DNA of 36,254 nucleotides from Thermoplasmatota archaeon (GCA_029762535.1 JARVGK010000031.1:1-36254); one strand, 5' to 3'; numbered from the stretch's first letter, positions 9,224 to 31,556 are shown. Translations and numbers: made by a program. Notes: generated by a model from the sequence alone, not told the origin.

Positions 9224-9241
9224 AATATATAATATACTTAT
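9224..9241. promoter_or_regulatory. AT-rich TATA-like element between divergent rqcH and the 669-aa gene
   Basis: AATATATAATATACTTAT in a GC-rich background between divergent starts. Confidence 0.45.
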
Positions 9242-9285
9242 CGATAGATTAACCCCCCAAGGTAAAATGGGGCCGTAGCCTGTTC

Positions 9286-12336: not shown

Positions 12337-12355
12337 ATCTATAATAAGTTTTTAT
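12337..12355. promoter_or_regulatory. Compact divergent TATA-like promoter region
   Basis: ATCTATAATAAGTTTTTAT in the short gap between the divergent signal peptidase and PfkB genes. Confidence 0.4.
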
Positions 12356-12369
12356 CCGCTCTGTGCGAT

Positions 12370-13335
12370 ATGGTGGTGGACATGAAGGGATCGTCTGAGG
12401 CCGCATTGCTGGTGGTGGGCAACCTTAACGTCGACCGAATATACAGGGTTCCAAGTATCCCTTTGGCAGGCCAGTCCGTACCGGTACTGGCAGAGAGAAC
12501 GGCCTACGGCGGATGCGGGGGCAACATCGCCATAGCGGCATCCAGGCTGGGATTGAGGACGCATATCTCTTCCGTCGTCGGCGGTGACCTTCCAGAGGAT
12601 TATAGGTCGAGGCTGAAGGATTCGGGAGTGGACATGTCCGATCTATGCGTGATCGATGACAAGCCAACTCCTTACTGTGTCATACTGTCCGCCCCCGACG
12701 GATCCCAGATATACGCCTTCAACTTGGGGGCGATGGGGGAGCAGGCCTCGCTCCCGCTTCCCGGGATCGACCCCTCGGAACTAACATTCTGTCATGTGAC
12801 CACGTCGGATCCTGGATACTGCTTGAGGGTTCTCGAACGAATGTCAAGCGAGGGGATACGGACAGGGTTCGATCCCGGGCAGGAGATATTCTTCAGATGG
12901 AAGAAAGAGGAGTTGGTCGCATCGCTCGAGTTCTCCGACCGATTCTTCGGGAACCTCCAGGAATGGAGGGCTTTGGGGGATATGATGGGTTGGGCGTCCC
13001 GGAACGCGAGTCCGACCCTCCCCGGAGTGATGACGTTCGAAGAAGCGTTCGAACACATAGGGGAGGCGATAGTTACCATCGGGTCGAGGGGCGCTGTCCT
13101 GATGGATAGAAAAGGAGCGATCCACAGCAAGGCGTTCGGAAGCGCTGTACCGATGGACGCGACGGGTGCGGGGGACGCTTTCCGCGGAGCTTTTTACGCG
13201 GCCCTGGCAAGGGGCATGCCCTCTAAAGAAGCGCTCGAGATCGGCAATATCATGGGGGGAAAGGTCATATCCTTCGATGGTGCCCAGGAATACTCGGTAT
13301 CATGGGGGGAACTGCTATCATCAAGGGACCGATGA
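12370..13335 (+). CDS. PfkB/ribokinase-family carbohydrate or nucleoside kinase
   Basis: Motifs GNLNVD, YGGCGGNIAIAASRLG, FDPGQ, TIGSRGA and DATGAGDAFRGAF. Confidence 0.9.
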   Translation: MVVDMKGSSEAALLVVGNLNVDRIYRVPSIPLAGQSVPVLAERTAYGGCGGNIAIAASRLGLRTHISSVVGGDLPEDYRSRLKDSGVDMSDLCVIDDKPTPYCVILSAPDGSQIYAFNLGAMGEQASLPLPGIDPSELTFCHVTTSDPGYCLRVLERMSSEGIRTGFDPGQEIFFRWKKEELVASLEFSDRFFGNLQEWRALGDMMGWASRNASPTLPGVMTFEEAFEHIGEAIVTIGSRGAVLMDRKGAIHSKAFGSAVPMDATGAGDAFRGAFYAALARGMPSKEALEIGNIMGGKVISFDGAQEYSVSWGELLSSRDR

Positions 13336-15086: not shown

Positions 15087-18041
15087 ATGAAGATGACCGA
15101 CCCTGCCCGGAGAACGGAGGAGGCGGATCCCGATGACGAGGTCAACGGAAGAAGCACCCAGTTCTACGATCTCATGAGACACAAGGTGACCAAGATACTG
15201 CTCGTATCATCGCCTTACGAAGCCTTCATCCTTGAGGAGGATGGGATACTCTTCGAGAAGATATCCTTCGAGTACGAGGATATGAGCCTGAGCTCTCCGC
15301 CCAGGATAAACCGCGTCTCCTCAGCGGCGGAAGCGTTGGAGGAGATCAGGAACCTTCGCTACGATCTGATAATAACGATGGCAAGGCTGCCCGATATGGA
15401 CCCACTCGAATTCGGCAGGAGGGTCAAGGAGGCCCAGCCATCCCTACCAGTGGTCCTATTACTGATGGATAGGGGCGATCTCTCCCAATTCCACAGGGCA
15501 GGAGAATACGATTCAGTTGACAAGGTGTTCCTGTGGAACGGGGATTCGACCCTTTTCCTGGCCATCAACAAGCTTATTGAGGACAAGAAGAACGTTGCAT
15601 CCGACACGTCGACGGGACTCGTGAGGGTAATACTCATAGTCGAGGATTCTCCCAGATACTATTCGATATTCCTGCCTTTGATCTACACCGAGATACTCAG
15701 GCAGAACAAACTGTTGATATCGGAGGGCTTCAACGAACAGGACAAGCTTTTGAGGAAGAGGTCCAGGCCCAAGATCATTATGGCAGAGACCTTCGAGGAG
15801 GCCCTTGAGAAATATACATTCTACAAGAGCTGTATGCTCTGCATAATAAGCGACGTTTCGTTTCCCAGAGCTGGCAGGCTGCATGAGGAGGCGGGGTTCG
15901 AGCTCATCGATGAGATTGATAAAGGGACGCCGGTCCTCTTGAACTCCTCGCACGACGATCATATGAAAAGGGCTCAGGATATGGGGGTGCCCTTCCTCAA
16001 CAAGAACTCGACCGTTCTGCTTTCGGGGATAAGGGAGTTCTTCAAGGAGAGGCTCGGTTACGGCGATTTCATCTTCAGAACGCCCGATGGTACCGAGATA
16101 GACCGGGCCAAAGGAATACACGAGTTCATGGAGATGATAAAGAGGATACCTTCCGAGTCATTGTATCACCACGGAAGGGCGAACCAGTTCTCCAGCTGGC
16201 TTCTGGCCAGAGGAGAGGTCGCCCTCGCCGCGAAACTCAGGCCCAAGAAGGTGTCGGATTTCCGAGACGGGGAGGAGATGCGAGAGCACATAATCGAGGC
16301 GATCAAGGAGATAAGAAGGAGCAAGCAGATGGGGGTCATACTGGATTTCGACAGCCAGGAGTTCGAGTTCGAGGGGACCGTCACAAAGCTTGGAACAGGT
16401 TCCCTCGGGGGTAAGGGCAGGGGTATCGCTTTCCTATCATCGATCGTCAAGAGGTCCTCTCTTTCCGATCGGTTCAGGGGCGTCAGGATAAAGATACCGG
16501 AGACGTTGATAATCGGCACCGAATGGTTCGACAGGTTCAGCGAGGCTAACCGCGAGAAATGGTTGGGAGACCCCGATATGGAGGACCATGAGATATCGAA
16601 GAGATTCCTGGAGATGGAGATGCCCGCTGAGCTCGTCGACTCTCTGCGCAAGTTCATCTCCCACGCAAGGTTCCCCTTGGCGGTGAGGTCGTCGAGCCTT
16701 CTGGAGGATTCGCACAACCAGCCTTTCGCCGGTATTTACTCCACCTACATGCTCCCGAACAACTGCCCCGAGGACGAAGTGAGGCTGGCCCAGCTGGTGG
16801 ATGCGGTGAAGCTCGTCTACGCCTCGGCCTTCCACAAGGCGGCCAGGAGCTACATGAGATCGACGGTCCACGTCACCGAGGAGGAGAAGATGGCCATTGT
16901 CATTCAGAGGCTCGTAGGGAACGGGCTCGGGGACAAGTTCTTCCCCCTCATGTCAGGGGTCTCCCAATCCCTGAACTTCTACCCCGCTCCGCCTCTCACA
17001 AGAGAGGACGGGATCACCAGCGCCGCATACGGCCTGGGTAGGATAGTCGTGGAGGGCGGCAGGGTGCTGTCCTTCTCCCCCAACCGCCCCGGAGTGCTCC
17101 CGGGTTTCTATACAGTTGAGGACATGCTGAAGAACTCACAGAAGGATTACTACGCTCTCGATATGGGGCCCAACTGCGCCCATCTTGTGGAGGGGGACCA
17201 TGCGACGCTCGTCAAGCAGGACATCGCCGACGCCGAGGATGCGGATTGGACCGGATATGTCATGAGCACCTACGATCCCAACGATGGAAGGTTGCGGGAC
17301 GGGATCGGAACGGAGGGTCCGCGCCTCGTCACTTTCGCCGGGATCCTCAAGGGAAAGATGGTCCCCGTGGACCTGATATTGAAGGAATTGACCGATATCG
17401 GCAGAAAAGGTATTGGAAGGCACATCGAGATCGAGTTCGCTCTCGCAATGGGATCGGACGGTGTCCCCGAGTTCTACCCGCTCCAGATCCGCCCCCTGGT
17501 AACATCGAGGGAAAAACAAGTAGTGTCGATCCCGGAGGCGGACCTCCAACATGCCCTGGTCCATACCGATTCAGCTCTCGGGAACGGGGCCATAGATGGC
17601 ATCCGAGACGTGATCTTCATACCCTACGACCTCTTCGATGTGAACAGGACCGTGGAGATCGCATCGGAGATCGGCGCGTTCAACGAGAAGATGTGCGGCA
17701 GCCCCTACATTCTGATAGGGCCAGGCAGGTGGGGTACCAGGGACCGCTTCCTGGGAATACCTGTCAAATGGGACCAGATCTCCTGCGCCAGGGCCATGGT
17801 GGAGTATTCCACTGAGGATCACAGGATAGATCCCTCCCACGGGACACATTTCTTCCATAATATAACCTCCCTGAACATACCCTACCTGTCCGCTGGCAGA
17901 TCTGGTATCGATTGGGATCGGATAGCCGGGATGGAGGTTCTCGAGAGGAGCGCCCATGTCGTGCATGCCGCTTCCAAAGAGCCGTTGAGGGTAGTGGTGG
18001 ATGGAAGGTCGGGAAAAGGGGCGGTAATGCATGAAAATTGA
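15087..18041 (+). CDS. PEP-synthase-like ATP-grasp (PPDK_N) protein with two N-terminal receiver-like domains, a DUF5752-like domain and a C-terminal GTHFF domain
   Basis: REC-like KILLV...DLIITM; REC VILIVED...IISD...LNSS...FLNK; GDFIFRTPDG...ESLYHH...NQFSSWL; ATP-grasp motifs GGKGRG, AVRSSSLLED...FAGIY, IEIEFA...LQIRP; GPGRWG and PSHGTHFFHN. No PEP/pyruvate TIM barrel. Confidence 0.85.
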   Translation: MKMTDPARRTEEADPDDEVNGRSTQFYDLMRHKVTKILLVSSPYEAFILEEDGILFEKISFEYEDMSLSSPPRINRVSSAAEALEEIRNLRYDLIITMARLPDMDPLEFGRRVKEAQPSLPVVLLLMDRGDLSQFHRAGEYDSVDKVFLWNGDSTLFLAINKLIEDKKNVASDTSTGLVRVILIVEDSPRYYSIFLPLIYTEILRQNKLLISEGFNEQDKLLRKRSRPKIIMAETFEEALEKYTFYKSCMLCIISDVSFPRAGRLHEEAGFELIDEIDKGTPVLLNSSHDDHMKRAQDMGVPFLNKNSTVLLSGIREFFKERLGYGDFIFRTPDGTEIDRAKGIHEFMEMIKRIPSESLYHHGRANQFSSWLLARGEVALAAKLRPKKVSDFRDGEEMREHIIEAIKEIRRSKQMGVILDFDSQEFEFEGTVTKLGTGSLGGKGRGIAFLSSIVKRSSLSDRFRGVRIKIPETLIIGTEWFDRFSEANREKWLGDPDMEDHEISKRFLEMEMPAELVDSLRKFISHARFPLAVRSSSLLEDSHNQPFAGIYSTYMLPNNCPEDEVRLAQLVDAVKLVYASAFHKAARSYMRSTVHVTEEEKMAIVIQRLVGNGLGDKFFPLMSGVSQSLNFYPAPPLTREDGITSAAYGLGRIVVEGGRVLSFSPNRPGVLPGFYTVEDMLKNSQKDYYALDMGPNCAHLVEGDHATLVKQDIADAEDADWTGYVMSTYDPNDGRLRDGIGTEGPRLVTFAGILKGKMVPVDLILKELTDIGRKGIGRHIEIEFALAMGSDGVPEFYPLQIRPLVTSREKQVVSIPEADLQHALVHTDSALGNGAIDGIRDVIFIPYDLFDVNRTVEIASEIGAFNEKMCGSPYILIGPGRWGTRDRFLGIPVKWDQISCARAMVEYSTEDHRIDPSHGTHFFHNITSLNIPYLSAGRSGIDWDRIAGMEVLERSAHVVHAASKEPLRVVVDGRSGKGAVMHEN

Positions 18042-18093: not shown

Positions 18094-18624
18094 GTGGTCC
18101 GGGGTCGCCCTCGATCCCTGTCCAGCGGGCCTCTCGGGGTGTTCTCTTTGGATGATGTGCCGCCAGTTTCCGGGTCCCATCAAGCGAAAAAGATCGTCGA
18201 AAGAAGCAAGCTGATACCGCGACTGCAGAAGATACAGGAGAAGAACGGCTACCTGCCCGAGGCGGAGATAGTATCCCTTGCAGAGGAGCTCGGGATCCCG
18301 CTAAGTTCCATATATGGCGTTGCGACCTTCTATACGCAGTTCCGGTTCCAGCCTCTGGGCAAGTACGTGCTAAAGATATGCCACGGCACCGCCTGCCATG
18401 TGAACGGGGCCGTGAAGATGTCGGAGGTAATAACCGAGGTTCTCGGGATAGACGAGGGCCAGACGACCCCTGACGGTCTGGTCACCGTTGAGCGCGTCGC
18501 ATGCCTTGGATGCTGTTCCCTCTCACCGGTAATAATGATAAACGATAGGGTGTTCGGTAAGCTGGACACTGCGAAGCTCAGGGATATACTCGACAAGCTC
18601 AAGAGAGGTGAGATCGATGATTGA
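18094..18624 (+). CDS. NuoE/HydC-like thioredoxin-fold [2Fe-2S] subunit (StnA/NfnC-like); start uncertain
   Basis: LQKIQEKNGYLP, GVATFYTQF, ICHGTACHV and ACLGCCSLSP. Confidence 0.9.
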   Translation: MVRGRPRSLSSGPLGVFSLDDVPPVSGSHQAKKIVERSKLIPRLQKIQEKNGYLPEAEIVSLAEELGIPLSSIYGVATFYTQFRFQPLGKYVLKICHGTACHVNGAVKMSEVITEVLGIDEGQTTPDGLVTVERVACLGCCSLSPVIMINDRVFGKLDTAKLRDILDKLKRGEIDD

Positions 18625-20416
18625 ATACATATCGATCGGCATGAACTCCTGCGGGATCGCCGCAGGGGCGAAGGATACGTATCAAGCGCTTGTGAAGGGG
18701 TTGAAGGAGAGGTCGCTCGACATACCCATCAAAGTCGTGGGATGCGCCGGAATGTGCTACAGGGAGCCCCTCGTCGATGTGGTCGAGGGGTCCGGTATAA
18801 CGGGTTACGGCGGCGTGACGGCGGACAATGTGGAGAGGATCATAGAGGAGCACATCGTGAAAGGTTCCCAGGTTCAGGACCTGATGGTGAAGAAGGCCTC
18901 CAGGTCAGATCCTGACGATATCAGATGGGACATGGACATGTTCTTCAAGAAGCAGAAGAAGATAGTCCTTGAGAACTCCGGCATCATCGATCCGGAGCAG
19001 ATATCCGAATACATGGACAGAGGTGGATATCATGGCCTTCGAAAGGCCCTCTCGATGGCGCCGCCCGAGGTGGTATCAGAGGTGGATAGGTCCGGATTGA
19101 GGGGCAGAGGGGGGGCTGGTTTCCCCACCGGACTCAAGTGGAAGATAACAATGGAGGCCAAGGCGAACAAGAAGTATGTGATATGCAACGCCGACGAAGG
19201 CGATCCGGGGGCGTTCATGGACCGCAACGTCCTCGAGGGGGATCCCCACAGGGTGATCGAGGGGATGACCATCGGGGCATATGCCGTGGGCTCGGACGAG
19301 GGATACATCTACTGCAGGGCCGAGTATCCCCTGGCGATCAAGCGCCTCAGCATAGCCATAGACCAGGCCAAGGAGAAGGGATTCCTCGGGAAGAACATAC
19401 TCGGTAGCGACTTCTCCTTCGACATACACATCAAGGAAGGGGCCGGTGCTTTCGTATGCGGCGAGGAGACCGCCTTGATGAATTCCATCGAGGGTAAGCG
19501 GGGCATGCCCAGGCCCAGGCCCCCATACCCCTCCGAAAAGGGCCTTTTCGGCGCATCGACGATGATAAACAATGTGGAGACATGGGCGAACGTCCCCTGG
19601 ATAATGCGAAAGGGGGCCGATAGATACGCCGAGTTCGGCGTCGACAGGAGCAAGGGGACGAAGGTGTTCGCCCTGGCAGGAAAGGTGAGAAGGGGAGGGA
19701 ACGTGGAAGTGCCCATGGGCATGCCCATAAGGGAGATCCTCTACGATATAGCCGGAGGCTCCAGCACGGATAGGGATATCAAGGCCGTGCAGTTCGGGGG
19801 CCCCTCGGGCGGCTGCCTCCCATCCACGCTGTTCGACACTCCGGTAACGTATGAGGACCTGACCAAGACTGGCGCGATCGTTGGCAGCGGAGGTATGGTG
19901 GTGATGGACGAGGGAACGTGCATGGTCGATATAGCCCGTTTCTTCCTGGATTTCACCGTCAAGGAATCCTGCGGAAAATGCACGTTCTGCAGGCTTGGGA
20001 CCAGGAGGATGTGGGAGATTCTCGACAGGATATCCGAGGGGAAGGGCAGGGAGGAGGACGTATCTGCCCTCGAATCGTTGGCATATGATGTCAAGGCCGG
20101 ATCGTTGTGCGGTCTGGGCCAGACCGCGCCCAACCCGGTCCTGACCACCCTTCGGTACTTCAAGGATGAGTTCATGTCCCACGTCAACGACAAGGAATGC
20201 CCGGCGCACGTCTGCAAACCGTTAATGAGATTCAATATTACTGATCGGTGCGTGGGCTGCACCGCCTGCGCAAGGGTCTGCCCTGTGAAGGCCATCAGCG
20301 GGGAGGTCAAATTGATGCACGTCATAGATCAGGAGGCCTGCATAAAATGCGGATCCTGCGTACAGGCCTGCAAGTTCAAGGCGATTGAGATCACCGGGAT
20401 AAAGGAGGTGGCCTGA
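18617..20416 (+). CDS. NuoF/HydB-like FMN/NAD-binding subunit with N-terminal 2Fe-2S and C-terminal 2x[4Fe-4S] domains (StnB/BfuB-like)
   Basis: SGLRGRGGAGFPTGLKW, CNADEGDPGAFMDR, GAFVCGEETAL, GGPSGG, ESCGKCTFCRLG, SLCGLG and two CxxCxxCxxxC motifs. ATG 18617 follows GAGGTG. Confidence 0.92.
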   Translation: MIEYISIGMNSCGIAAGAKDTYQALVKGLKERSLDIPIKVVGCAGMCYREPLVDVVEGSGITGYGGVTADNVERIIEEHIVKGSQVQDLMVKKASRSDPDDIRWDMDMFFKKQKKIVLENSGIIDPEQISEYMDRGGYHGLRKALSMAPPEVVSEVDRSGLRGRGGAGFPTGLKWKITMEAKANKKYVICNADEGDPGAFMDRNVLEGDPHRVIEGMTIGAYAVGSDEGYIYCRAEYPLAIKRLSIAIDQAKEKGFLGKNILGSDFSFDIHIKEGAGAFVCGEETALMNSIEGKRGMPRPRPPYPSEKGLFGASTMINNVETWANVPWIMRKGADRYAEFGVDRSKGTKVFALAGKVRRGGNVEVPMGMPIREILYDIAGGSSTDRDIKAVQFGGPSGGCLPSTLFDTPVTYEDLTKTGAIVGSGGMVVMDEGTCMVDIARFFLDFTVKESCGKCTFCRLGTRRMWEILDRISEGKGREEDVSALESLAYDVKAGSLCGLGQTAPNPVLTTLRYFKDEFMSHVNDKECPAHVCKPLMRFNITDRCVGCTACARVCPVKAISGEVKLMHVIDQEACIKCGSCVQACKFKAIEITGIKEVA

Positions 20417-23344
20417 ATGGTGAAGGTCATCGTTGATGGCAGGGAGTTCGATCTCCCCGACGACCAACCGATATTATCGGGTTTGAGAGAACAGGGCGAG
20501 CACATGCCCGGGATGTGTCTGAACCCGGAGTTGGACCCTTTCGGGTCCTGCAGGCTCTGCCTGATCGACGTGAAGGGAAGGAAGATAACGGCATGCTCGA
20601 CCCTGCCGTCGGAGGGAATGGAGCTGACGACCATCAGCCCGGAGATATCCGGTCTCAGAAGGACCGCGCTCGAGCTGATGCTGTCGGACCATTACGGCGA
20701 CTGTATAGGCCCGTGCCAGAAGGGATGTCCCGCCCACAGCGACGTACAGGGATATCTGGCCCTCATCGCCAACGGAAGGATACACGAGGCCGTCAAGCTC
20801 ATGAAGGAAAGGTACATACTCCCGGCGACGCTCGGCAGGGTCTGCCCAGCCTTCTGCGAGGAGGAGTGCAGGAGGAAGCTTGTGGAGGGCCCGGTAGCCA
20901 TAAGGCAGCTCAAACGCTACGCCGCGGACGAGGACCTCAAGGATCCATGGATGCCGGAGATCCCGCCGGCGACAGGCAGGAAGGTCGCCGTTGTGGGGGG
21001 AGGCCCGGCCGGGCTCTCCAACGCCTTCTACCTGAGGTCCATGGGCCATGATGTGACGATATTCGAGGCCATGCCCAAGCTCGGAGGCTGGACCCGGTAC
21101 GGGATCCCCCGCTACAGGCTGCCCAAGGATGTCCTGGACCGGGACATCGCGACGGTCATCGATACAGGGATCGATGTTAGATGCTCCACGAGGCTCGGTA
21201 AGGATGTGGCCCTGGACGATCTTTCGCGGCAATACGACGCGGTCTTCCTGGGCATAGGCGCCTGGAAAGGGAGGGCCATGGGAGTTGAAGGGGAGGACCT
21301 CCCCGGCGTATTCCAGGGTATAGACTTCCTCTCAAGGGTCAATCAGGGGGAGGGGATCGATCTCGGAAAGAGGGTGGTGGTCGTCGGTGGCGGTAACACT
21401 GCCATGGACGTGGCAAGGACGTGCCGAAGGCTGGGATGCGAGGTGACGCTGACCTACAGGAGGTCCGAGGACGAGATGCCCGCGGCCAGGATAGAGATAG
21501 AGGAGGCGAAGGAGGAGGGGATATGCTTCATGCTCCTTTGCAACCCCGTGAAGGTAATTGGCAATGACAGGCTGGAGAAGCTTGAGTTGATCGCCATGGA
21601 GCTCGGCGATCCCGACGCGAGCGGAAGGAGGAGGCCGGTGCCGAAGGAGTGCTCGGAGTTCACCCTGGACGCGGACAGCCTCATACTGGCGATAGGGCAG
21701 TACAACGATGACGATGAGATGAAGCGTCTCGGCGTGGGCGTCCGCAAGGGTCTGCTGGAGGTGGATAGAACGACGCTTCGGACCACCTATCCCAACGTGT
21801 TCGCCGGCGGGGACGCGGTCCTTGGCCCATCGACCGTCATCGAGTCCATCGAGCAGGGCAGGCGTGGGGCCCTGATGATGGACATGTTCATGAAGGGAAA
21901 ATTGGAGACGGTCAAGAAGGTCCTTGAGCGTCCGGGTGAGCATGTGGCAGAGACGGTACAGGATAGCGAGATCGCCTCGATGTTGATGGACCTCAAGCCC
22001 TACGATCACTGGAAGAACGTGACCGAGGCGGACTACGAGCACATCGAAAGGTCCCCGCGACGCAAAGCACCCATAATGGATCCGGACACCAGGTCGGGGA
22101 CCTTCTCGGAGGTCGAGGGTTCATTCGACGAGGATTCGGCCAGGGCCGAGGTGATGCGCTGCATGTCCTGCGGATGCATGGACGTTTTCGAGTGCAAGCT
22201 CAGGGAGTATTCCACCATCTACGGAGCGGACCAGTACAGATTCGGGGAAGGCAGGACCAAGGTCGATATCGATCTCTCCCACCCTCAGATCGTACTCGAC
22301 AAGAACAAATGCGTGCTGTGCGGACAGTGCGTCAACCACACGCAGGATGTCGTCGGGGAGGGCGTACTGGACTTCTGCAACCGAGGCGTCGAGACCGTGG
22401 TCTCCCCTCCGCCGGGAAAAGGGCTCTCCGACATGTCCGGTGTTATGATGAGTGACATGATCGATGTATGTCCGACCGGTGCGTTCTCCGAGAACACGCC
22501 CCATCGCAAACCGGGGCCCTGGAACACTCGGACGGTCCGCTCCATATGCAGCGGATGCGGAGTTGGATGCGAGATGGGGCTCGAGGTATACGATAGCGAT
22601 ATCGTCAGGGCCAGGTCGATACCGGATACTTGGAACAGGGGCCACCTATGCGATCCCGGAAGGTTCGAGAGGATCTGGGCCATTTCCCATAGCGGACCGA
22701 AAGTTCGCGACGGGGATTCCTACAGGTCCATCTCTCCCGATAAGGCATCTTCCATATTCCTCGAAAGGTCCAAGGGAATGGCGATCGTACTTGGCGGGGA
22801 CGTGACCCTTGAGGAGGCTGAGATGTTCAGGTCCATCGCCGTGGAGAAGGGGATCCCGATCGGTTCCACTGCCGAAGAGGGGCTATCGACGGCCACATAC
22901 ATGGATATCAGCCGTTCCAGGTCCATCTATTTGGCATTGGATGTCAATGGATATCCCGTGCTGAAACCCTTCCTGAACGAGGCGATAAGGCGCGGGGCGT
23001 CGATCGTGATGAGCGAGGAGGAGGCCGATATGATCATCGCGGAGGCCCCCTACGTTCCGGGTGAGAAGAAGGCGCTGGTCATGCACAGGGGGCTCAACGA
23101 TGCCGGATTGCTCCAGATGGGCATAAAGGGCATCCCGAAGGCCGACTCCTACCTGTTCGTGGGGGCCCAGCGCGATGAGCTGCTGGGGTACACGATCGCC
23201 CTGGGCCACAGCGAGATCGCGGATATGGTCCTGCCCTATCCCTCCTTCGCCAACAGGTCCGGGAGCATCGTCAATTCCGGGCTCATCAAGCTTACAAAAA
23301 AGGGACTGGTAGAGTCGGATATCAGAGCCTACCTGCCTTTTTGA
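20417..23344 (+). CDS. GltD/NfnB-like FAD/NADPH oxidoreductase fused to NuoG/FdhA-type Fe-S domains (StnC/NfnA/NsoC-like)
   Basis: N-terminal 2Fe-2S (CRLC, TAC), PCQKGCP, LGRVCPAFCEEEC, VVGGGPAG, GGGNTAMD...YRRS (NADP-type), RCMSCGC, KCVLCGQCV and ICSGCGVGC...HLC, then a short degenerate molybdopterin-like remainder. Confidence 0.88.
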   Translation: MVKVIVDGREFDLPDDQPILSGLREQGEHMPGMCLNPELDPFGSCRLCLIDVKGRKITACSTLPSEGMELTTISPEISGLRRTALELMLSDHYGDCIGPCQKGCPAHSDVQGYLALIANGRIHEAVKLMKERYILPATLGRVCPAFCEEECRRKLVEGPVAIRQLKRYAADEDLKDPWMPEIPPATGRKVAVVGGGPAGLSNAFYLRSMGHDVTIFEAMPKLGGWTRYGIPRYRLPKDVLDRDIATVIDTGIDVRCSTRLGKDVALDDLSRQYDAVFLGIGAWKGRAMGVEGEDLPGVFQGIDFLSRVNQGEGIDLGKRVVVVGGGNTAMDVARTCRRLGCEVTLTYRRSEDEMPAARIEIEEAKEEGICFMLLCNPVKVIGNDRLEKLELIAMELGDPDASGRRRPVPKECSEFTLDADSLILAIGQYNDDDEMKRLGVGVRKGLLEVDRTTLRTTYPNVFAGGDAVLGPSTVIESIEQGRRGALMMDMFMKGKLETVKKVLERPGEHVAETVQDSEIASMLMDLKPYDHWKNVTEADYEHIERSPRRKAPIMDPDTRSGTFSEVEGSFDEDSARAEVMRCMSCGCMDVFECKLREYSTIYGADQYRFGEGRTKVDIDLSHPQIVLDKNKCVLCGQCVNHTQDVVGEGVLDFCNRGVETVVSPPPGKGLSDMSGVMMSDMIDVCPTGAFSENTPHRKPGPWNTRTVRSICSGCGVGCEMGLEVYDSDIVRARSIPDTWNRGHLCDPGRFERIWAISHSGPKVRDGDSYRSISPDKASSIFLERSKGMAIVLGGDVTLEEAEMFRSIAVEKGIPIGSTAEEGLSTATYMDISRSRSIYLALDVNGYPVLKPFLNEAIRRGASIVMSEEEADMIIAEAPYVPGEKKALVMHRGLNDAGLLQMGIKGIPKADSYLFVGAQRDELLGYTIALGHSEIADMVLPYPSFANRSGSIVNSGLIKLTKKGLVESDIRAYLPF

Positions 23345-23404: not shown

Positions 23405-24235
23405 ATGGAGTGCATATTCGCAAGCGATCTGCATGGAAGGAAGGAAAGGTACGACGCCCTCTTTAGGTCCATAGGCGAGATCGCTCCTCAAGCGGTGTTC
23501 CTGGGCGGGGATCTCCTGCCAAGGACGGGCGACGTGGTCCTGTTCATAGAGGAGATGATGGACAGGATAGACGAACTGCGATCGTCATCGTCACCATGTG
23601 AAGTGTACGTTATACTCGGCAACGACGATCCCAAACAGTACGAGGGCGAGTTCATCAGGGCCGATAGGGAAGGCAAGATACATTACGCCCACCAGCGGAG
23701 ATTCGAACTCGGCGGATACGTCATCAGGGGCTATTCACATGTACCTCCCTCGCCGTTCCTCCTCAAGGACTGGGAGAAGTACGACGTATCGCGATATGTG
23801 GATCCCGGCTGCGTCCCCCCCGAGGAGGGGATCTTCACCACGGATGTGGACAGGGGGGCGATACCACACACCACGATCAAGGGAGACCTATCGCCCCTCA
23901 TCAGGGATCCGGACATGCACAGGACGATAATGCTGTTCCACGCACCGCCATATGGAACATCTCTTGACATGGCGAACATCGGCGGGAAGATGATAGACCA
24001 CGTACCGCTGGACCCCCACGTCGGTTCGATAGCGATAAAAGAGTTCATCGAGTCGGCCTCTCCGCTGCTCACACTTCACGGCCATATCCACGAGTCCGCG
24101 ACCCTCACGGGGTCCTGGCGGGAAGAGATCGGAAAAACGACCTGCCTTTCCGCGGCCTATGAAGGCAAGGGCCTGGCACTTGTACGTTTCGACACGGAGC
24201 AGTTGGGATCAGCCACGAGGGGGATCATTTCCTGA
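23405..24235 (+). CDS. Calcineurin-like (Icc-related) metallophosphoesterase
   Basis: Motifs SDLHG, LGGDL, GNDD, FHAPP and HGHIHE. Confidence 0.88.
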   Translation: MECIFASDLHGRKERYDALFRSIGEIAPQAVFLGGDLLPRTGDVVLFIEEMMDRIDELRSSSSPCEVYVILGNDDPKQYEGEFIRADREGKIHYAHQRRFELGGYVIRGYSHVPPSPFLLKDWEKYDVSRYVDPGCVPPEEGIFTTDVDRGAIPHTTIKGDLSPLIRDPDMHRTIMLFHAPPYGTSLDMANIGGKMIDHVPLDPHVGSIAIKEFIESASPLLTLHGHIHESATLTGSWREEIGKTTCLSAAYEGKGLALVRFDTEQLGSATRGIIS

Positions 24236-27200
24236 ACGTGAGCTTCCTGGCGGGGTTGTAGACGGAGCCTATGTGGGAGGCCCATGATGTCTTGTTGGCG
24301 ATATCGCCATGAGTGACGACATGGACATCCAGGAGGCATCCGGACCGGATCCCGGTCCTATAGAAATTCTCCTCGTCGAGCCTCTCTCCCCATTCCCTGA
24401 AATATTCCAGGAGCCTCTCCTCCTGCTCCCGTTTGCCGTTGAAAACAACTATCAGATCGATGTCGGAACCTGGACCGGCCTTGTTCTCCTTGACGCTGCC
24501 GACTAGGTATATCTCCTCTATGCCCATGGTCTTACGATCTATATCGGATAGAACATCATCGAGCCTCTCCATCCTCCACGAGTTATGATCGGGTGTGGCG
24601 AGGTATCCCATCGCCTTTATCGATTCCCCATCCATTACAACCGACAGAGATCCCCCGGAGGAGATGTCGGAGGTCCTGATCAGCCTTACAACTTCTTTGT
24701 GTCCATTCGATATCTGTACGTGCTCGTGGAGGCGGTTCTCCGAGATGCCCAGCAGCTGTTCGTTAAGATAGCCTCCTTCCTCGTCAGGGTACAGGGGAAG
24801 GTATTGTATGCCCGCCTCCACGAGGTCCTGGAAGAAATGGGTGCCGAAGGAAAGGTCCGGAACGTATCCTCCCTTGCTCCTTGCGATCTCTATGAGCAGG
24901 CATGTATTATTGATATCACCGTACTGGACCGGGACCCCGAGCTTTATGTCTCCCCTGCTGCCCCATCTTCCAGGCCCCATGAGGAGGAACCGCTTCTTCG
25001 GCAGAGCCGAGTTCAACCTGGAAACGATGCCCGCAACGGCGTTCATCTCCTCCCTGCTATCCAGCTTCTCATATGCCTCAGGGTCCACGTACACGATCCA
25101 ATCGATGTTCTTTATAAGTCCCGATGTGACGTATCTGGCGGCCCGGAAGAGAACGTTCTTCTCCAGAACATCCGTTGGAAGTGAGATCTTCTCCGATATC
25201 ATGCCTCGCGTCTGGGGCCTGCACTGGAGAATGTACAGGCTCGATCCGTCGTGGGCGAACTCGATATCAACTGGCGTCCTCAATCTATCCTTCAATAGCG
25301 TCATTACCTTCTTCATCTGCCTGATGAACGGCGTCCTCTCCACTATGCCGTTGAAGGTCACCACCGGCTGCCTTTGATCGGTTCCCAGTATGACCCCTTT
25401 CGGGTCCACGATCCCCCCTTCCGCGTGGAACGATATCATCTTCTCGAGGTCGGGATACGAGGACGAATTGGCCCTTATCATGTCCTCTATCCTTATGGTA
25501 TCTATGGTCTTTGACCCCATGTTGATGACGTCCATGAATACCTGCGAGTATCTGGCGATGTCCTCCGTGCTGGTGTTAACCCTTATCATGGGCTTCATCG
25601 GGGATATGAGTAGTGGATAATCGTTCGATACCCGATCCACCGCTCTGGTACCCAAACCCATCACCATTCTAAGTATCCCGTCCTGCCTGTTGATCCTTGC
25701 GGACCACCGGAACTCGTTATTGGTAAGGGCCACTCCAGCGAAGCTCGGGGTGAAATAGGGCCCGATGCGGTTGCCCACCACCTCCTGGATCAGGACGCCC
25801 ATGTTCTCAGAAAGGTCCAGAAGTCCCCTCTCCCTTCTGTATTCGATCGGGTTCGGTCCGAACGTGGACGCCCATACCTCCGCTATGGCGTCCATCAACG
25901 CGTTCAACCTCTCATCGTCCGTTCCCGTATTGCACAGGAACAGGCTTTTGTACTTGCCCGAGAAGGCCGCCCCGTAACTGTCCTCGAGATGGCTTGAGGA
26001 CCTGACGATTATCGGCCGGTCCTTGATCTCCCTGAGCACGTCCCTGAGCTGATTGAGTATCTCTGACGGGAACATGCCGTTCTTGAACAGCTGCTCCAGG
26101 AAGGGCTGCTCCTTCCTGATCTCGTTCGGGTCCATGTATTTGATCTGGACGACCTCGTCCAAGGCGTTCTCGTGTATGAACTCCCTCATCGCCCCCGTGC
26201 TCATGTACCAGCTGCGGGGGAACCTGATGGACCCGATGTCCTCATCTCTCCCCATCTCCTTTTTGATTATTCTTTCTATGAGAAAGACCATCGATGATTT
26301 TCCTCCGAGGCCTCCGACCCCTTCGTAATGGCCTATGAACCTGTGGGCCATCTGGTGGAAATCCTCTATCTCCAGGTAATCCTTGGCGACGTTGAGGTAT
26401 TCTGGCCTGTCGTTGAGGAAGCGTCTTATGAGATTCGTGACGATCGTGCGTTTCATCTCCTCGGGTATGATGCGATCGCCGACGGGTATCCGCATGTAAT
26501 TGTCGAGTGCGGATTGCACCTCCTTGAGCGAGATCTTTCCCTGCTCGGAAACCAGAAGCAGGGGCCTGGCCTTGTTCTCCTTCAGCCATCTGACCAGAAG
26601 GTCCATGATCTCGGACGATGTGAGATGCTTCGAGGCGACGTCGAAAAGGCCCTGCTGTACCTGAATAAGCGACTGCATATCGAACCTCGGGTTCGGAATG
26701 TTGGAACCCAGCTGTTCATCCTCCTCCGAAGAGGACGGCTTCAATATCGCCAATAGGCTCTCTAGGCTCTCCTCCTTGAGCCTTGCGAGATGGTACATCA
26801 TCTTCCTGCTGATCATGAGATATGTCTGCGGATCGGTCTTGTTGAGAATGTCGATTATCAGCCTCCACTCCTCTCCAGGTGTCGAAGCAGGACCGATCAT
26901 ATTCTTAAGGCTCGCACCTTTGGCGGATAGCAGCCTCTTCATCTGATCGACATAGCTTCTCACCTCCGCCTCGCTGTAGTACTGGCTGACGTACTTCGAT
27001 ACGTTCTCCGATACAACGCGTAGCAGTTTCCCCTCCTCTTTCAGGAAAGGACCTATGTCCCTTTTCGGCTTTTTCTTGTGATAGTTGACCCTTATTTCGC
27101 CTACGCTCTTCCCGCCCTGCATTATCGCTCCGGATAGGGACCATTCGGTCTGAGCATGTCCGGGCGTCTGATATGATCTGGGGCCAAGGGTGATGCCGGC

Positions 27201-27419
27201 CGTCGCGATCTCCGGATACATCATGGCCTGTGGCAGGATCTCCACTATCATCTGCATCGTCCTGTCTATGTCCACGCCCTCGTTCTCGATGATCTCCGCC
27301 ACTTGGTATATGCAGTTGAGCTCCTTGAGTCTCTCCCTCAGCTGGCTGTCCTTTTCGGCGAGCTCCCTGTCCAGATGGCCCATCTTTACGTTCTTTGCGG
27401 TCTTCGTCGCCTTTTTCAT
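24225..27419 (-). CDS. GAF-like + PEP-synthase-like ATP-grasp + GTHFF domain + C-terminal Pol-beta-type nucleotidyltransferase protein
   Basis: LRERLKELNCIY...YPEI...GPFLKEE (GAF-like segment typical of sensor kinases); GGLGGKS, IVRSSSHLED...FSGKYKS, DIEFAH...LQCRPQ; GPGRWGS, LSFGTHFFQDL; IYLVGSV...GSDIDLIV...DVHVV. Confidence 0.85.
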   Translation of the reverse strand: MKKATKTAKNVKMGHLDRELAEKDSQLRERLKELNCIYQVAEIIENEGVDIDRTMQMIVEILPQAMMYPEIATAGITLGPRSYQTPGHAQTEWSLSGAIMQGGKSVGEIRVNYHKKKPKRDIGPFLKEEGKLLRVVSENVSKYVSQYYSEAEVRSYVDQMKRLLSAKGASLKNMIGPASTPGEEWRLIIDILNKTDPQTYLMISRKMMYHLARLKEESLESLLAILKPSSSEEDEQLGSNIPNPRFDMQSLIQVQQGLFDVASKHLTSSEIMDLLVRWLKENKARPLLLVSEQGKISLKEVQSALDNYMRIPVGDRIIPEEMKRTIVTNLIRRFLNDRPEYLNVAKDYLEIEDFHQMAHRFIGHYEGVGGLGGKSSMVFLIERIIKKEMGRDEDIGSIRFPRSWYMSTGAMREFIHENALDEVVQIKYMDPNEIRKEQPFLEQLFKNGMFPSEILNQLRDVLREIKDRPIIVRSSSHLEDSYGAAFSGKYKSLFLCNTGTDDERLNALMDAIAEVWASTFGPNPIEYRRERGLLDLSENMGVLIQEVVGNRIGPYFTPSFAGVALTNNEFRWSARINRQDGILRMVMGLGTRAVDRVSNDYPLLISPMKPMIRVNTSTEDIARYSQVFMDVINMGSKTIDTIRIEDMIRANSSSYPDLEKMISFHAEGGIVDPKGVILGTDQRQPVVTFNGIVERTPFIRQMKKVMTLLKDRLRTPVDIEFAHDGSSLYILQCRPQTRGMISEKISLPTDVLEKNVLFRAARYVTSGLIKNIDWIVYVDPEAYEKLDSREEMNAVAGIVSRLNSALPKKRFLLMGPGRWGSRGDIKLGVPVQYGDINNTCLLIEIARSKGGYVPDLSFGTHFFQDLVEAGIQYLPLYPDEEGGYLNEQLLGISENRLHEHVQISNGHKEVVRLIRTSDISSGGSLSVVMDGESIKAMGYLATPDHNSWRMERLDDVLSDIDRKTMGIEEIYLVGSVKENKAGPGSDIDLIVVFNGKREQEERLLEYFREWGERLDEENFYRTGIRSGCLLDVHVVTHGDIANKTSWASHIGSVYNPARKLTFRK

Positions 27420-27447: not shown

Positions 27448-30213
27448 TCATACCTTTTGACCCCCGGGTATCTGCATAACGGCGCGTGATCCGCTCCCGT
27501 CTATGAGGACCCGGACCCCCCTCTCCGACCTTAGATGCATGACCCTATCGGACTCGTAGGCTTTTGGAATATCATCCAGAGCGCTCCAAAGGGCGGATCC
27601 GTCCTCCTCCGCATCCAAAGTGAGATAACCCAGGCGAAGGGACGATATGTTCTGGAAGAAATGGGAACCCTGGGACGGGTCGATCATCCTGTCGCCCACG
27701 GGCCTCTCCACCATCACTCCGACGGCCGAAATGTCGTTCCAGGCGACGGGTATGCCGAGCCATGGGTCGCATGATCCCCATCTACCGGGACCTATGAGGA
27801 GATGCTTTCTCCCCGATGAGGACACCTCCTTGTTGAGCTTTCCTATCTCCTTGACGAGGGCGTCCGCGCTCCTTCCCTCCAGCTCGCGCCCTTTGACCAT
27901 GATTATATCATTGAAGGCGAACTCTCCGTTGCCCATGGTCCTTCCGCATCTGAGCACGATCTCGTCCTCGGGGACGGAATCGAGATCGGCGAGCGATCTG
28001 CGGTCCCTGCCCCTCATGCTTCGCAGCTGCAGAAGGTAAAGTTCCGCATTCTCCCCGTCATCGAATATGTTCATGGCGAACTCGATCTCGACGGGAGTAC
28101 CCAGCGAGCGCTGGGACGCATCTAATATGTCCTTCATGACCTCGGCCATGGGGAAACGCTTCATCTGAAGAATGGGGGCGAAATCCACTATCCGGGGTCC
28201 GTCCCTGCCGCATCCCGGGTAGGTCCTGTCGTTCTCGCATGAATAGGTGGATACAAGACTGTCGAGGACACCGTCCTCCTCCGCCCTGGATAAGTCCTCG
28301 AGGACGATCTGCACGTCCTCGCCGAACTCGTTGGACCTCACGGTAGGTGAGAACTTCAGCGCGTAGAAACGCCTTTGAGTTCGATCGAGGCATTCCCGCC
28401 CCCCTCCGAGGAACGAGGAACGCGGATGGACGGGGCAGAACTTGAAGGTCGCCCCTCCGTCGACTATCATCTTTCCCAGCCCCACAGCGAGGCTGACGGT
28501 CCCGTCCTCGCTCCTGCATGTCGGGAAGGGCCAGTAATCGTAGGACCTCCCCACCCCGGATAGGTCAGGATAGTATAGTTCGCCGTGCGTGTTTCCGACG
28601 ACCTCCTGAATAACTGCCGCCATCTTCTCATCAGCATTATGGTTCCCTGTGCTTTCGAGATAGGCTCGTGCCCTCTTCAGGAAGGTTGAGGCATATACGT
28701 ATTTGATCCCCATGCTGATGTGCTTGAACCTCCGATCGAGCTCATGGCCTGAGTTCGAGAGCATCACCGATGCGTATATCCCGGCGAAGGGCTGGAAGAG
28801 CGCGTCCTCAAGAAGGCTCGAGGACCTGATTATCACGGGGTTCCTCACGATATCGGCGAAGTGGCGTATATCCCCGATAATGGTGCTGGGAAGGTCCGAT
28901 CTGAGGAACAGGTCGACGATCCTCTCGTCCGTCTCGTCCTTGAGCTTTTCGGGATCCAGTCCGTTGTTCTTGAGGAACTGGTCGAACACATCCGTAGCAA
29001 GTACAACGGTTCTTGGGACCTTTATCGTCAGATTGCTGTACTTTCCCCGGTCGAGGCTCATAGCCAATCCCTTGAGGAAAGATAACCCCCTGCCCTTGCC
29101 TCCCAGCTGTCCGCTCCCGATCCTGGTGAACTCGTCCTTGACCTGGGCGCTTCTTGTGAAATCCATTACGCTTCCGGACCCTCCCGAGCGGCGCCGCTCC
29201 TTGATAAGATCGATAAGGTGGGCTTTCCAATCTTGAGAGGCGTCCCGAAGGAATGCGTCCATATCGCGAACGATCTCGAACTCCGTCCTGCTTATCAGCC
29301 AAGGCCTGATACTTTTCCATTGATCCGGGCTTGGCCGGGTCGAATACAACAGCCTCTCAAGGCCCCTCAGGTCGCCACAGCTGCCCAGTTCCGTAACGCC
29401 CTCATCCTTGAGGACCAGATCCTCGGGGATGAGCATGTCGGATACGTTCTCCTCGGTGAGCTCCAAGGGGGGGAGTGACGGGATCCCTTTGATGGGAGCC
29501 TGATCGGAAATGACGAGCGAGACCCTGTCCCCGAAGCGGTGCAAGGCTTTTTCCAGCCCTCCGTAACGGATCGCGTCCATGACGCGTATCCTCCTCTCGA
29601 AGGCTCTGATCTTCTCTTTGAGCGCTGTTTTTCGGCCCATGATCCCCGGAAGCCTGGCCCATACGGCGTCGCAGGCGGCGATGATCGCATGAGACCTATC
29701 GGCCATATTCTCGATGTCCAGGAGAATAATGTGAGAGAGGCCTTCGTCCCTATCCGGGTCGTCAAGATATGACCGGTCCTCCATGAACTGGACTATACGG
29801 GGAACTATCTCAATCCCCTCGGGCATCAGGAAGATCGAGTCAAAGGCCGAGGGATCGATCTCTCCTTCCTGGTCAAGAACGCCTTTGTTCCTCGTCAAAA
29901 AGGCCAGCTTACCGGCGGGTGAAAATGCCCTCGCTCTCTCGATAAGATCGCCCATTGGCATGTCCGCGGGAGGATTGAACACCAAGGCGAGATCGATCCC
30001 GCCTCCCTCAATGGATCCAAGGGCCTGTTGGCCTCCGGAAGCGAAATCCACATCCGGAACGAAACCAAGATCGGCCTCGGAGTACCTTTTGGACAGGGCA
30101 GTTATTATAGGGACCTCACCCTCCAGATACAGCCGGTCGAACTCCGATGCTATCAGCAGCATGTGCCGGACGCTGGAGGTGGTGTCCCGATCCGCATCCA
30201 CGCTTTCGCTCAT
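27448..30213 (-). CDS. PEP-synthase-like ATP-grasp protein with degenerate receiver-like N-terminus and GSHFF domain (paralogue of 15087-18041)
   Basis: GGKGRGLSFL, IIRSSSLLED...FAGIY, EKMAAVIQEVVG, VEIEFAM...LLQLR, GPGRWGS and DPSQGSHFFQN. Confidence 0.85.
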   Translation of the reverse strand: MSESVDADRDTTSSVRHMLLIASEFDRLYLEGEVPIITALSKRYSEADLGFVPDVDFASGGQQALGSIEGGGIDLALVFNPPADMPMGDLIERARAFSPAGKLAFLTRNKGVLDQEGEIDPSAFDSIFLMPEGIEIVPRIVQFMEDRSYLDDPDRDEGLSHIILLDIENMADRSHAIIAACDAVWARLPGIMGRKTALKEKIRAFERRIRVMDAIRYGGLEKALHRFGDRVSLVISDQAPIKGIPSLPPLELTEENVSDMLIPEDLVLKDEGVTELGSCGDLRGLERLLYSTRPSPDQWKSIRPWLISRTEFEIVRDMDAFLRDASQDWKAHLIDLIKERRRSGGSGSVMDFTRSAQVKDEFTRIGSGQLGGKGRGLSFLKGLAMSLDRGKYSNLTIKVPRTVVLATDVFDQFLKNNGLDPEKLKDETDERIVDLFLRSDLPSTIIGDIRHFADIVRNPVIIRSSSLLEDALFQPFAGIYASVMLSNSGHELDRRFKHISMGIKYVYASTFLKRARAYLESTGNHNADEKMAAVIQEVVGNTHGELYYPDLSGVGRSYDYWPFPTCRSEDGTVSLAVGLGKMIVDGGATFKFCPVHPRSSFLGGGRECLDRTQRRFYALKFSPTVRSNEFGEDVQIVLEDLSRAEEDGVLDSLVSTYSCENDRTYPGCGRDGPRIVDFAPILQMKRFPMAEVMKDILDASQRSLGTPVEIEFAMNIFDDGENAELYLLQLRSMRGRDRRSLADLDSVPEDEIVLRCGRTMGNGEFAFNDIIMVKGRELEGRSADALVKEIGKLNKEVSSSGRKHLLIGPGRWGSCDPWLGIPVAWNDISAVGVMVERPVGDRMIDPSQGSHFFQNISSLRLGYLTLDAEEDGSALWSALDDIPKAYESDRVMHLRSERGVRVLIDGSGSRAVMQIPGGQKV

Positions 30214-30269: not shown

Positions 30270-31556
30270 TCAGATCCATCCGCGGAGGTGGCAGGCCTCT
30301 GCCACTCTCGAGATGGCTATCATGTAGGCGGACTCTCTGAGTGGGATGTTCCTGTGCTTGGTGAGGTCGAGCACACCGTGGAACGCCTGGGTCATCTTCT
30401 CGTCGAGCTTTCCGAGGACCTCGTCTCTGGACCAGTAGTAGTTCATGTTGCACTGGACCTGCTCGAAGTAGCTGCAGGTGACCCCGCCGGCGTTCGCCAG
30501 GAAGTCGGGTATGACCATTATCTTCCTGGAGCTCAGGACCGAGTCGGCCTCCGGCGTGGTGGGGCCGTTGGCGCCTTCCGATACCAGCTTGACCCTCTTG
30601 TCGATCCTGTCAACGTTGGAGGCGGTTATCGAATTTTCGAGGGCCGCCGGTATCAGGATATCGACGTTCATTTCGATCCAGTCATCACCGGGAATGCGCT
30701 CGTAGCCCATCGCCTTGGCCTTGTCGAAATCTATTGACCCGTACCGGTCGGTGATGGATCGCAATTCCTTGAGATAGATGCCCTCTTCCTTGACAAAGGT
30801 GTAGGCCTTCTTCTCCTGCTGGTTCCAGCAGGATACGCATTTGACCGTCCCTCCATACTGGTTGTAGAGCTCGATGGTGTACTGGGCCACGTTGCCGAAA
30901 CCCTGAACGGCGGCGGTGGTCTTGGAAATGTCCATCTCGAGGTCCTTGAGCGCCTCCCTGGTGTGGTATATAACGCCGTAGCCGGTCGCCTCGGTCCTGC
31001 CGAGGGACCCGCCCATGCCGACCGGTTTGCCGGTAATGAATCCGGGGTACTTTCCACCGGAGAGCTTTTCGTACTCGTCAAGCATCCATAGCATGTGCTG
31101 CCCGCTCGTCATCACGTCCGGGGCGGGAACGTCCTTGAAGGGCCCTACGTTCTGATACACCTGCCTGACCCAGCCGCGGCAGATCCCCTCCTGTTCTCTC
31201 ATCGAGAGATCGTGAGGATCGCATATGACGCCACCTTTGCCCCCGCCCAGCGGGATGTCGGCGACCGCGCATTTCCAGGTCATCCACATCGCAAGCGCCC
31301 TGACGGTGTCGGCGGTCTCCTGCGGGTGGAACCTTATGCCGCCCTTGCAGGGACCGCGGGCGTCGTTGTGCTGCACCCGGAACCCTTTGAAGACGCGGTA
31401 CGTCCCATCGTCCATCCTCACCGGGATGGAAAAATGGTATTCCCTCAAGGGCTCCCTGAGAAGGTTCCTCGAGGCTTGGTCCAATTCCAGTTTCTCGGCG
31501 ACAGCATCGAACTGATCCTGCGCCATCTTGTAGGCGTTGAAACCCTTTTCGGCCAA
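30270..31556 (-). CDS. Glu/Leu/Phe/Val dehydrogenase, probable glutamate dehydrogenase (GudB/archaeal-like clade)
   Basis: RGPCKGGIRFHP, MTWKCA, GGGKGG, DVPAPD, TGKP, VQGFGNVA, EGANGP and NAGGVTCSYFE. TTG start after GGAGAG. Confidence 0.9.
   Translation of the reverse strand: MAEKGFNAYKMAQDQFDAVAEKLELDQASRNLLREPLREYHFSIPVRMDDGTYRVFKGFRVQHNDARGPCKGGIRFHPQETADTVRALAMWMTWKCAVADIPLGGGKGGVICDPHDLSMREQEGICRGWVRQVYQNVGPFKDVPAPDVMTSGQHMLWMLDEYEKLSGGKYPGFITGKPVGMGGSLGRTEATGYGVIYHTREALKDLEMDISKTTAAVQGFGNVAQYTIELYNQYGGTVKCVSCWNQQEKKAYTFVKEEGIYLKELRSITDRYGSIDFDKAKAMGYERIPGDDWIEMNVDILIPAALENSITASNVDRIDKRVKLVSEGANGPTTPEADSVLSSRKIMVIPDFLANAGGVTCSYFEQVQCNMNYYWSRDEVLGKLDEKMTQAFHGVLDLTKHRNIPLRESAYMIAISRVAEACHLRGWI

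Follow-up and report, generated by a model that had tools for sequence, protein, structure and literature searches.

The stretch of DNA analyzed here, 36,254 nucleotides (nt) from a Thermoplasmatota archaeon (GCA_029762535.1, JARVGK010000031.1:1-36254), is referred to below as the window. On its minus strand, a single open frame of 1,064 codons fills positions 24225 to 27419 and encodes a protein that we call P0001. The gene follows that of a paralog, P0002, and the two lie, as a first-pass annotation of the window had stated for P0001, downstream of two glutamate dehydrogenase (GDH; gdh) genes on the same strand. The annotation described P0001 as a sensor joined to an ATP-grasp of dikinase type and to a nucleotidyltransferase of the Pol-beta kind, an architecture that was borne out by Pfam matches, by AlphaFold2 models, and by fold matches. 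The residues that it named (H861, D986 and D988, and a third Asp) were all located as claimed. The parts of P0001 are as follows.

24225..27419, minus strand: P0001, whole gene, 1,064 amino acids (aa); GAF-like, helical, PPDK_N ATP-grasp, C-domain, and minimal nucleotidyltransferase (MNT) parts; full-length orthologs are 40 to 92% identical.
26946..27356, minus strand: GAF-fold sensor module, residues 22 to 158; invariant E29 R30 x K32 E33 L34 x C36 and GPFLKEE.
26337..26870, minus strand: all-helical domain, residues 184 to 361, given no family; secondary structure from AlphaFold2 (predicted local distance difference test score [pLDDT] about 75 to 86), no Pfam match.
25203..26309, minus strand: PPDK_N-type ATP-grasp, residues 371 to 739; Pfam PF01326, E 8.5e-54; GGK374, R473-S-S, D718xE720, and Q732xR734 conserved.
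24588..25202, minus strand: C-domain, residues 740 to 944, common to both paralogs, no fold assigned; G815-P-G-R-W-G-S821, E844, and S857-x-G-T-H861-F-F-Q-D invariant.
24837..24839, minus strand: codon of His861, invariant in orthologs and paralogs; candidate phospho-acceptor.
24228..24587, minus strand: minimal nucleotidyltransferase (Pol-beta fold), residues 945 to 1064; G974-S975-x9-S985-D986-x-D988, with D1031 as the third carboxylate.

Besides PPDK_N, Pfam detected a Pol-beta-type signature at residues 962 to 1012 (NTP_transf_2, PF01909, E 7.6e-9; Polbeta, E 2.3e-6). No family in Pfam was matched by residues 1 to 370 or 740 to 960, not even with the cutoff relaxed to E 10, and the relaxed search of the N-terminal 375 residues and of residues 735 to 1064 returned nucleotidyltransferase models alone. 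Of the profile matches that the first-pass annotation had anticipated, those to PPDK_N and NTP_transf_2 were thus found; the Pfam GAF models were not matched up to E 10. Structure was predicted with two AlphaFold2 models of parts of P0001, for which the input was a 24-sequence ortholog alignment. Residue conservation was scored over 83 full-length orthologs, at about 40% identity, which come from the Thermoplasmatota and, among bacteria, from more than 15 lineages.

The nucleotidyltransferase motif hG[GS]x9-13Dh[DE]h is present as G974-S975...S985-D986-I-D988, with D1031 as its third carboxylate, and G974, S985, D986, D988, N1018, and D1031 are each at least 97% conserved. The first-pass annotation had tied its claim beforehand to conservation of the DxD motif among homologs; because D986 and D988 are kept to this degree in archaeal and bacterial orthologs alike, the claim is not refuted on this point. 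When the C-terminal model was compared with known structures (Foldseek and VIA-align), the MNT part alone was matched, and the best matches were protein- or drug-modifying MNTs and MNT antitoxins. As modeled, this domain is an alpha/beta nucleotidyltransferase fold of the minimal class. No GlnD or GlnE domain was found in P0001; the only nucleotidyltransferase models of Pfam that matched were NTP_transf_2, Polbeta, and MTPAP-like.

The match to PF01326 covers positions 4 to 312 of the 328-position profile. The sequence models nearest to P0001 are those of phosphoenolpyruvate (PEP) synthase, PigC, RedH, and rifampin phosphotransferase, and the ATP-grasp matched PEP synthase/rifampin phosphotransferase in the PDB (5hv1/5fbs). 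At least 97% conserved are K374, R473-S474-S475, E479-D480, D718, E720, Q732, and R734. C. symbiosum pyruvate phosphate dikinase (PPDK), with Lys22, Arg92, and the Mg/ATP ligands Asp321, Glu323, Gln335, and Arg337, has the same D-x-E...Q-x-R pattern and spacing; the ATP-grasp of P0001 therefore looks catalytically competent.

Within the C-domain, G815 to S821, E844, S857, G859, T860, H861, F862, F863, Q864, and D865 are at least 97% conserved. Across 26 diverse proteins with PPDK_N and C-domain, both window paralogs included, three elements never vary, namely GPGRWG, a single Glu, and S-x-G-[TS]-H-F-F; the same C-domain shape is present in PPDK_N-only Atlas clusters. A PDB sequence search with the C-domain profile gave chance matches alone (longin domains, E ≥0.09). 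The triosephosphate isomerase (TIM) barrel of PEP and pyruvate enzymes (PF02896) had no Pfam match in P0001, where the MNT fold occupies the residues after the C-domain, and no RIF-binding domain was detected by Pfam. We also considered that the C-domain might be a diverged PEP-utilizer swivel domain, because, on visual inspection, THFFQDLVEAGI looks similar to SHAAIIARELGI and the VVMDGxxxxA at the end to VTVDGxxGxV; this idea was dropped as unsupported by the profile comparison described below.

At its N terminus, P0001 is predicted to form a long helix (residues 7 to 46). Fold comparison took in residues 11 to 160 and, as modeled, this module is a GAF domain by fold, a beta-sheet flanked by helices; since the Pfam sequence models gave no GAF match up to E 10, it is GAF-like at the fold level only. 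Its motif residues E29, R30, K32, E33, L34, and C36 are at least 97% conserved. The same type of module is also N-terminal on LuxR-type (GerE) helix-turn-helix DNA-binding proteins of about 280 aa, and it is thus an autonomous input domain. Cys36 (codon at 27312-27314, minus strand) is invariant in the 83 orthologs and falls within the ERxKELxC of the helix that enters the module; it is kept in the LuxR-fused copies P0123 to P0125 and absent from P0126. Cys36 may serve in redox sensing or in the binding of a ligand.

P0001 has more than 7,000 homologs in the protein database, carrying labels such as "PEP/pyruvate-binding domain-containing protein," "nucleotidyltransferase domain-containing protein," and "pyruvate, water dikinase." The best 120 are all full-length (about 1,040 to 1,105 aa), 46 to 92% identical, and named by source as Thermoplasmatota; most of them carry both PPDK_N and NTP_transf_2. 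When one genome per species was scanned, at least 566 species had a relative of the C-terminal 327 residues. Represented among the best 80 of these species are the Thermoplasmatota, Aminicenantes, Acidobacteriota, Cloacimonadota, Zixibacteria, Planctomycetota, Bacteroidota/Ignavibacteria, Calditrichota, Krumholzibacteria, Chloroflexota, Bacillota (Syntrophomonas), Deltaproteobacteria/Myxococcales, Spirochaetota, Verrucomicrobiota, and Lentisphaerota; the last include a cultured carrier of the gene cassette described next, Oligosphaera ethanolica DSM 24202 (locus L112, with the P0001 ortholog at 7892-11020). We found no paper on the P0001 family in the open-access literature.

The genes that accompany P0001 in the window are the following.

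30270..31556, minus strand: GDH of a dedicated subfamily, 428 aa, at the head of the row gdh-P0002-P0001; supported by subfamily alignment, synteny, and co-occurrence.
27448..30213, minus strand: P0002, 921 aa; degenerate N-terminal region, PPDK_N, and C-domain (GPGRWGS, GSHFFQ); 28 bp upstream of P0001.
23405..24235, plus strand: convergent metallophosphoesterase, 276 aa, GNDD motif (Pfam Metallophos, Metallophos_2); candidate eraser.
15087..18041, plus strand: third paralog, 984 aa; Response_reg, DUF5752, PPDK_N, and C-domain; adjoins the cassette in the family-level relatives L028 and L034.

All three members of the P0001 family in this genome, P0001 included, are inside the window. The gaps in the row gdh-P0002-P0001 are 56 and 28 bp, and GGAGGGG stands 8 nt ahead of the start codon; these short gaps and this motif fit a single transcript. 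The metallophosphoesterase gene meets P0001 tail to tail, the two 3' ends overlapping by 11 bp. Invariant in its product are D8, H10, D36, N73, D74, and H179. Its motif is GNDD rather than the GNH[DE] usual for the family, and GNDD is kept in 64 orthologs.

This arrangement is conserved. When the window proteins were compared by tblastn with 16 Thermoplasmatota loci, 15 had the order (NADP-type gdh), archaeal-type gdh, PPDK_N paralog, P0001 ortholog, and convergent phosphoesterase. Among the best 80 cross-phylum loci, 78 had the ortholog, 65 had an archaeal-type gdh just upstream and codirectional, and 53 had the phosphoesterase just downstream; about 58 of the 80 had a paralog between gdh and the P0001 ortholog, the bacterial form being usually short, with ATP-grasp and C-domain only. 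At loci with enough flanking sequence, gdh was upstream in 65 of 67, the exceptions being L064 and L121 only. L064 had nothing related in place of gdh; at L121, the P0001 ortholog is followed immediately downstream by a gene for saccharopine dehydrogenase (11736-13091, minus strand), which, like GDH, is a dehydrogenase linked to glutamate and 2-oxoglutarate.

We sampled 301 Thermoplasmatota genomes for a full-length P0001 ortholog (found in 40) and for this type of GDH at ≥65% identity (found in 39). Both were present in 37 genomes, P0001 only in 3, GDH only in 2, and neither in 259; the five genomes with a single gene are mostly incomplete or fragmented assemblies. The pairing of P0001 with its GDH is thus near-obligate, although the relatedness of the genomes precludes a formal test. 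With the operon kept across phyla and a dedicated GDH subfamily so regularly present beside P0001, the tie to gdh is much stronger than was apparent to the first-pass annotation. The two dikinase-like paralogs are tied to each other as well. Several proteins of 1,500 to 1,650 aa (P0128, P0130, and P0147) are natural fusions, in which a short P0002-like half, made up of ATP-grasp and C-domain, is joined to an entire P0001-like half; in P0128 (1,654 aa), residues 18 to 586 are 36% identical to P0002 and residues 608 to 1651 are 42% identical to P0001. These fusions argue that P0002 and P0001 act together.

The GDHs of the cassette share about 50% identity with Pyrococcus GDH and have a canonical-looking catalytic core. 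They form a distinct subfamily. After the second strand of the dinucleotide (Rossmann) fold, where canonical GDHs read VS-D, they have an insertion of six residues, VSCW[DN]Qx[DE]xx[SA][YW]; an N-terminal motif, FNxFxMAQxQFD, is conserved, as are Cys112 and Cys126. Judging by these sequences, cofactor handling may differ from that of ordinary GDHs. The Tyr of the insertion was considered as a modification site and discarded, since some orthologs have W, R, or F there. Some Thermoplasmatota (L024:12102-13337, L029:730-1965, and L030:5390-6625) have near the cassette yet another gene of the GDH family, the third, which is more distant (about 40% identity) and without the insertion.

Other genes of the window were noted in passing. 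Adjoining the cassette at 18094-23344 (plus strand) is an oxidoreductase trio (NuoE-like, NuoF-like, and a GltD/NuoG fusion), possibly an NAD(P)H/ferredoxin transhydrogenase. Among the 16 Thermoplasmatota loci, an oxidoreductase of NuoE/NuoF/GltD type often follows the cassette row; the trio recurs near the cassette at L026, L028, L033, L034, and L035 among the Thermoplasmatota loci and at 8 or 9 of the 80 cross-phylum loci, some of them bacterial. The protein encoded at 3862-5247 (minus strand) combines Schlafen/AlbA_2, HATPase_c_4, and winged-helix parts; it is a putative ATP-dependent DNA-binding regulator, apparently unrelated to the cassette. A large protein that runs off the start of the window (39-3779, plus strand), with GLUG motifs, four PKD domains, and CarboxypepD_reg, is probably a surface protein.

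On balance, we think it somewhat probable that P0001 is a modifying enzyme, gated by a ligand and driven by ATP, that has its effect on the GDH of the cassette and for which the phosphoesterase serves as eraser. In the scheme that we propose, a small ligand would bind the GAF-fold module and gate two ATP-dependent chemistries within the protein. The PEP-synthase-type ATP-grasp would use ATP to phosphorylate His861 of the adjoining C-domain, a step like that of the autophosphorylating histidine (di)kinase VadK, and the C-terminal MNT would move a nucleoside monophosphate (NMP) from a nucleoside triphosphate onto a hydroxyl group. The output would act on the co-inherited GDH or on a GDH-bound factor, by covalent modification or by a complex that modification controls, and the convergent metallophosphoesterase would strip the mark. 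What we infer here is the phosphorylation of His861, the NMP transfer, the GDH target, the eraser, and the nature of the ligand. That GDH itself is the protein covalently modified is a tentative proposal. We are equally hesitant about the fullest version, in which the cassette is a previously unrecognized form of post-translational control of GDH, spread among archaea and bacteria, with GAF-gated His phosphorylation and nucleotidyl transfer switching GDH and the phosphoesterase resetting it.

Several observations weigh against this scheme. The C-domain had no Pfam match to the phospho-His domain of PEP utilizers (PF00391, GGxTSHAA) even at E 10, and hhalign comparison of C-domain profiles with 10 true PF00391 domains taken from relatives, in three set-ups, gave probabilities of ≤0.3%. 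The model of the C-domain is poor, its most conserved stretch (residues 818 to 871) having a pLDDT of <50 if modeled without the ATP-grasp, and for this reason the C-domain may still be a diverged domain of equivalent structure. The suggestion in the first-pass annotation that H861 is a phospho-histidine therefore found no support in the profiles and, because no homology to PEP utilizers is detectable, only its position and invariance point to His861 as phospho-acceptor. The subfamily alignment of the cassette GDH revealed no conserved Ser/Thr/Tyr target site. The paralog or the phosphoesterase does not adjoin the P0001 ortholog at some bacterial loci, and thus neither is an obligatory neighbor. 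Finally, the conservation of the operon is no better a fit to regulation than to a metabolic pathway that its genes share.

Such a pathway is the alternative that we take most seriously, although we consider it unlikely. P0001 and its paralog would phosphorylate and, by way of the nucleotidyltransferase, nucleotidylate a metabolite that the dedicated GDH makes or uses (for instance, a 2-oxoacid or a derivative of an amino acid or of a pyridine nucleotide), with phosphate passing from the ATP-grasp to a His-type carrier and then to the metabolite, as in rifampin phosphotransferase, PigC/RedH, and phenylphosphate synthase; the phosphoesterase would process the product. The closest sequence models of P0001 are indeed small-molecule dikinases, minimal nucleotidyltransferase folds include the aminoglycoside adenylyltransferases, and tight operon linkage to an enzyme is typical of pathways. 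The GDH speaks on both sides, since its subfamily segment is altered beside the dinucleotide-binding strand but its core looks canonical. The known substrate-binding domains of dikinases (PF02896 and RIF-binding) are missing, however, and signaling modules, such as the GAF fold of P0001 and the receivers of paralogs, would be unusual in plain pathway enzymes. Less probable again is that the MNT makes a nucleotide signal, a short oligonucleotide or an NMP adduct, that controls GDH or another target allosterically and is degraded by the phosphoesterase; the ATP-grasp/C-domain part would then only sense or supply nucleotide. This reading, too, would account for the linkage to gdh. At only about 120 residues, the MNT lacks the extra lobes of known signal-making nucleotidyltransferases, and its best fold matches modify proteins or drugs. 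No receptor candidate was found, and a signal-degrading enzyme would be missing from the roughly one-third of loci that have no phosphoesterase.

The invariance of the His across all paralogs, the Response_reg match of the third paralog (Pfam, E 1e-9), and the usual place of the receiver-type paralog directly upstream in archaeal loci could instead mean that the three paralogs form a noncanonical His-to-Asp phosphorelay, from ATP-grasp to the His861-type His to a receiver Asp, with an output that has nothing to do with GDH activity, and that gdh is merely cotranscribed. We give this little credence, and slightly less than we give a nucleotide signal. The co-occurrence with GDH is too nearly obligate for a bystander, and in bacteria gdh is kept where the paralog is absent or is short and receiver-free (tblastn covers only residues ~447 to 981 of the receiver [REC] paralog). 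Because bacterial cassettes lack receivers, a His-to-Asp relay is not the core mechanism. It is highly improbable that the MNT is a toxin-antitoxin or defense module, a relative of MNT-HEPN fused by chance to a metabolic protein. MNT antitoxins are among its best fold matches, and there were weak matches to NCBIfam MntA (E 0.0012) and to PADLOC PDC-S09 (E 3e-5). The PADLOC models, however, gave domain-level MNT matches alone and no system, for which reason we rejected the defense reading; furthermore, no HEPN family turned up in Pfam scans of the window proteins, and more than 15 lineages of phylum level have the fusion as a fixed feature, where it sits with gdh.

Parts of the proposed modifying enzyme have counterparts in known systems. 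VadK (Rv1127c) of Mycobacterium tuberculosis is a truncated PPDK without the TIM barrel that, dependent on ATP and Mg, autophosphorylates on His422; it is described as retaining the phospho-transfer His domain of PPDK, and it interacts with methylcitrate-cycle enzymes, tuning their flux (PMC13400623). Both VadK and P0001 have an ATP-grasp derived from PEP synthase/PPDK and have lost the PEP/pyruvate TIM barrel, and VadK works on metabolic enzymes and not in glycolysis or gluconeogenesis. VadK has neither sensor nor nucleotidyltransferase, whereas P0001 adds the GAF-fold sensor, the helical domain, and the MNT; the C-domain of P0001 has no detectable similarity to the VadK-type His domain; and VadK is tied to the methylcitrate cycle and P0001 to GDH. 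As far as sequence comparison can tell, P0001 resembles VadK in evolutionary route and not in its His domain or accessory domains. Like PEP synthase, PPDK, and rifampin phosphotransferase, P0001 has a PPDK_N with conserved nucleotide and Mg ligands and then, in the position of the His domain, a domain in which one His is invariant. In contrast to these enzymes, it has no recognizable PF00391, PF02896, or RIF-binding domain and carries signaling and nucleotidyltransferase domains instead; of the three features that define PEP synthase and PPDK, it has PPDK_N and shows neither PF00391 nor PF02896. PtsP (EI-Ntr) also joins a GAF domain to a PEP-utilizing phosphotransferase, but it takes PEP via PF05524/PF00391/PF02896, none of which is in P0001, which has the ATP-grasp half instead.

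The first-pass annotation had compared P0001 with GlnD and GlnE. The logic is shared, since these proteins combine a Pol-beta-fold nucleotidyltransferase, ligand sensing, and a hydrolytic eraser to control nitrogen and glutamate metabolism through nucleotidylation of a protein, as we propose for P0001. Family membership is not: the nucleotidyltransferase of P0001 is of the MNT type (about 120 residues), its sensor has a GAF fold and not ACT, and the candidate eraser is a separate metallophosphoesterase rather than an HD or second nucleotidyltransferase domain. The sequences thus indicate a likeness in logic and not in ancestry. MntA of the MNT-HEPN system, which AMPylates a protein Tyr, has the same fold as the P0001 MNT and the same GSx9-10SDxD motif with a third Asp. 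The MNT of P0001 differs in being fused to a 940-residue enzyme in a metabolic operon, where the neighbors are P0002 and the metallophosphoesterase and not HEPN. We place P0001 among the PEP-synthase-derived regulators and the nucleotidyltransferase-based metabolic switches, with a real chance that it represents a new control system for GDH.

Traffic between amino-acid carbon and nitrogen passes through GDH, an enzyme central to the protein-degrading anaerobes and the marine or sediment archaea that have this cassette. To our knowledge, no covalent control system dedicated to a prokaryotic GDH has been described, and we found none in the open-access literature. If our proposal is correct, a four-gene set present in hundreds of species would fill this gap, and a function would be given to thousands of proteins now labeled "PEP/pyruvate-binding domain protein" or "pyruvate, water dikinase." The cassette would be the GDH counterpart of the control of glutamine synthetase by GlnE/GlnD, built from PEP-synthase parts, and it would extend the finding made with VadK that dikinases can evolve into regulators. 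With O. ethanolica DSM 24202 as a cultured carrier, the idea is directly testable.

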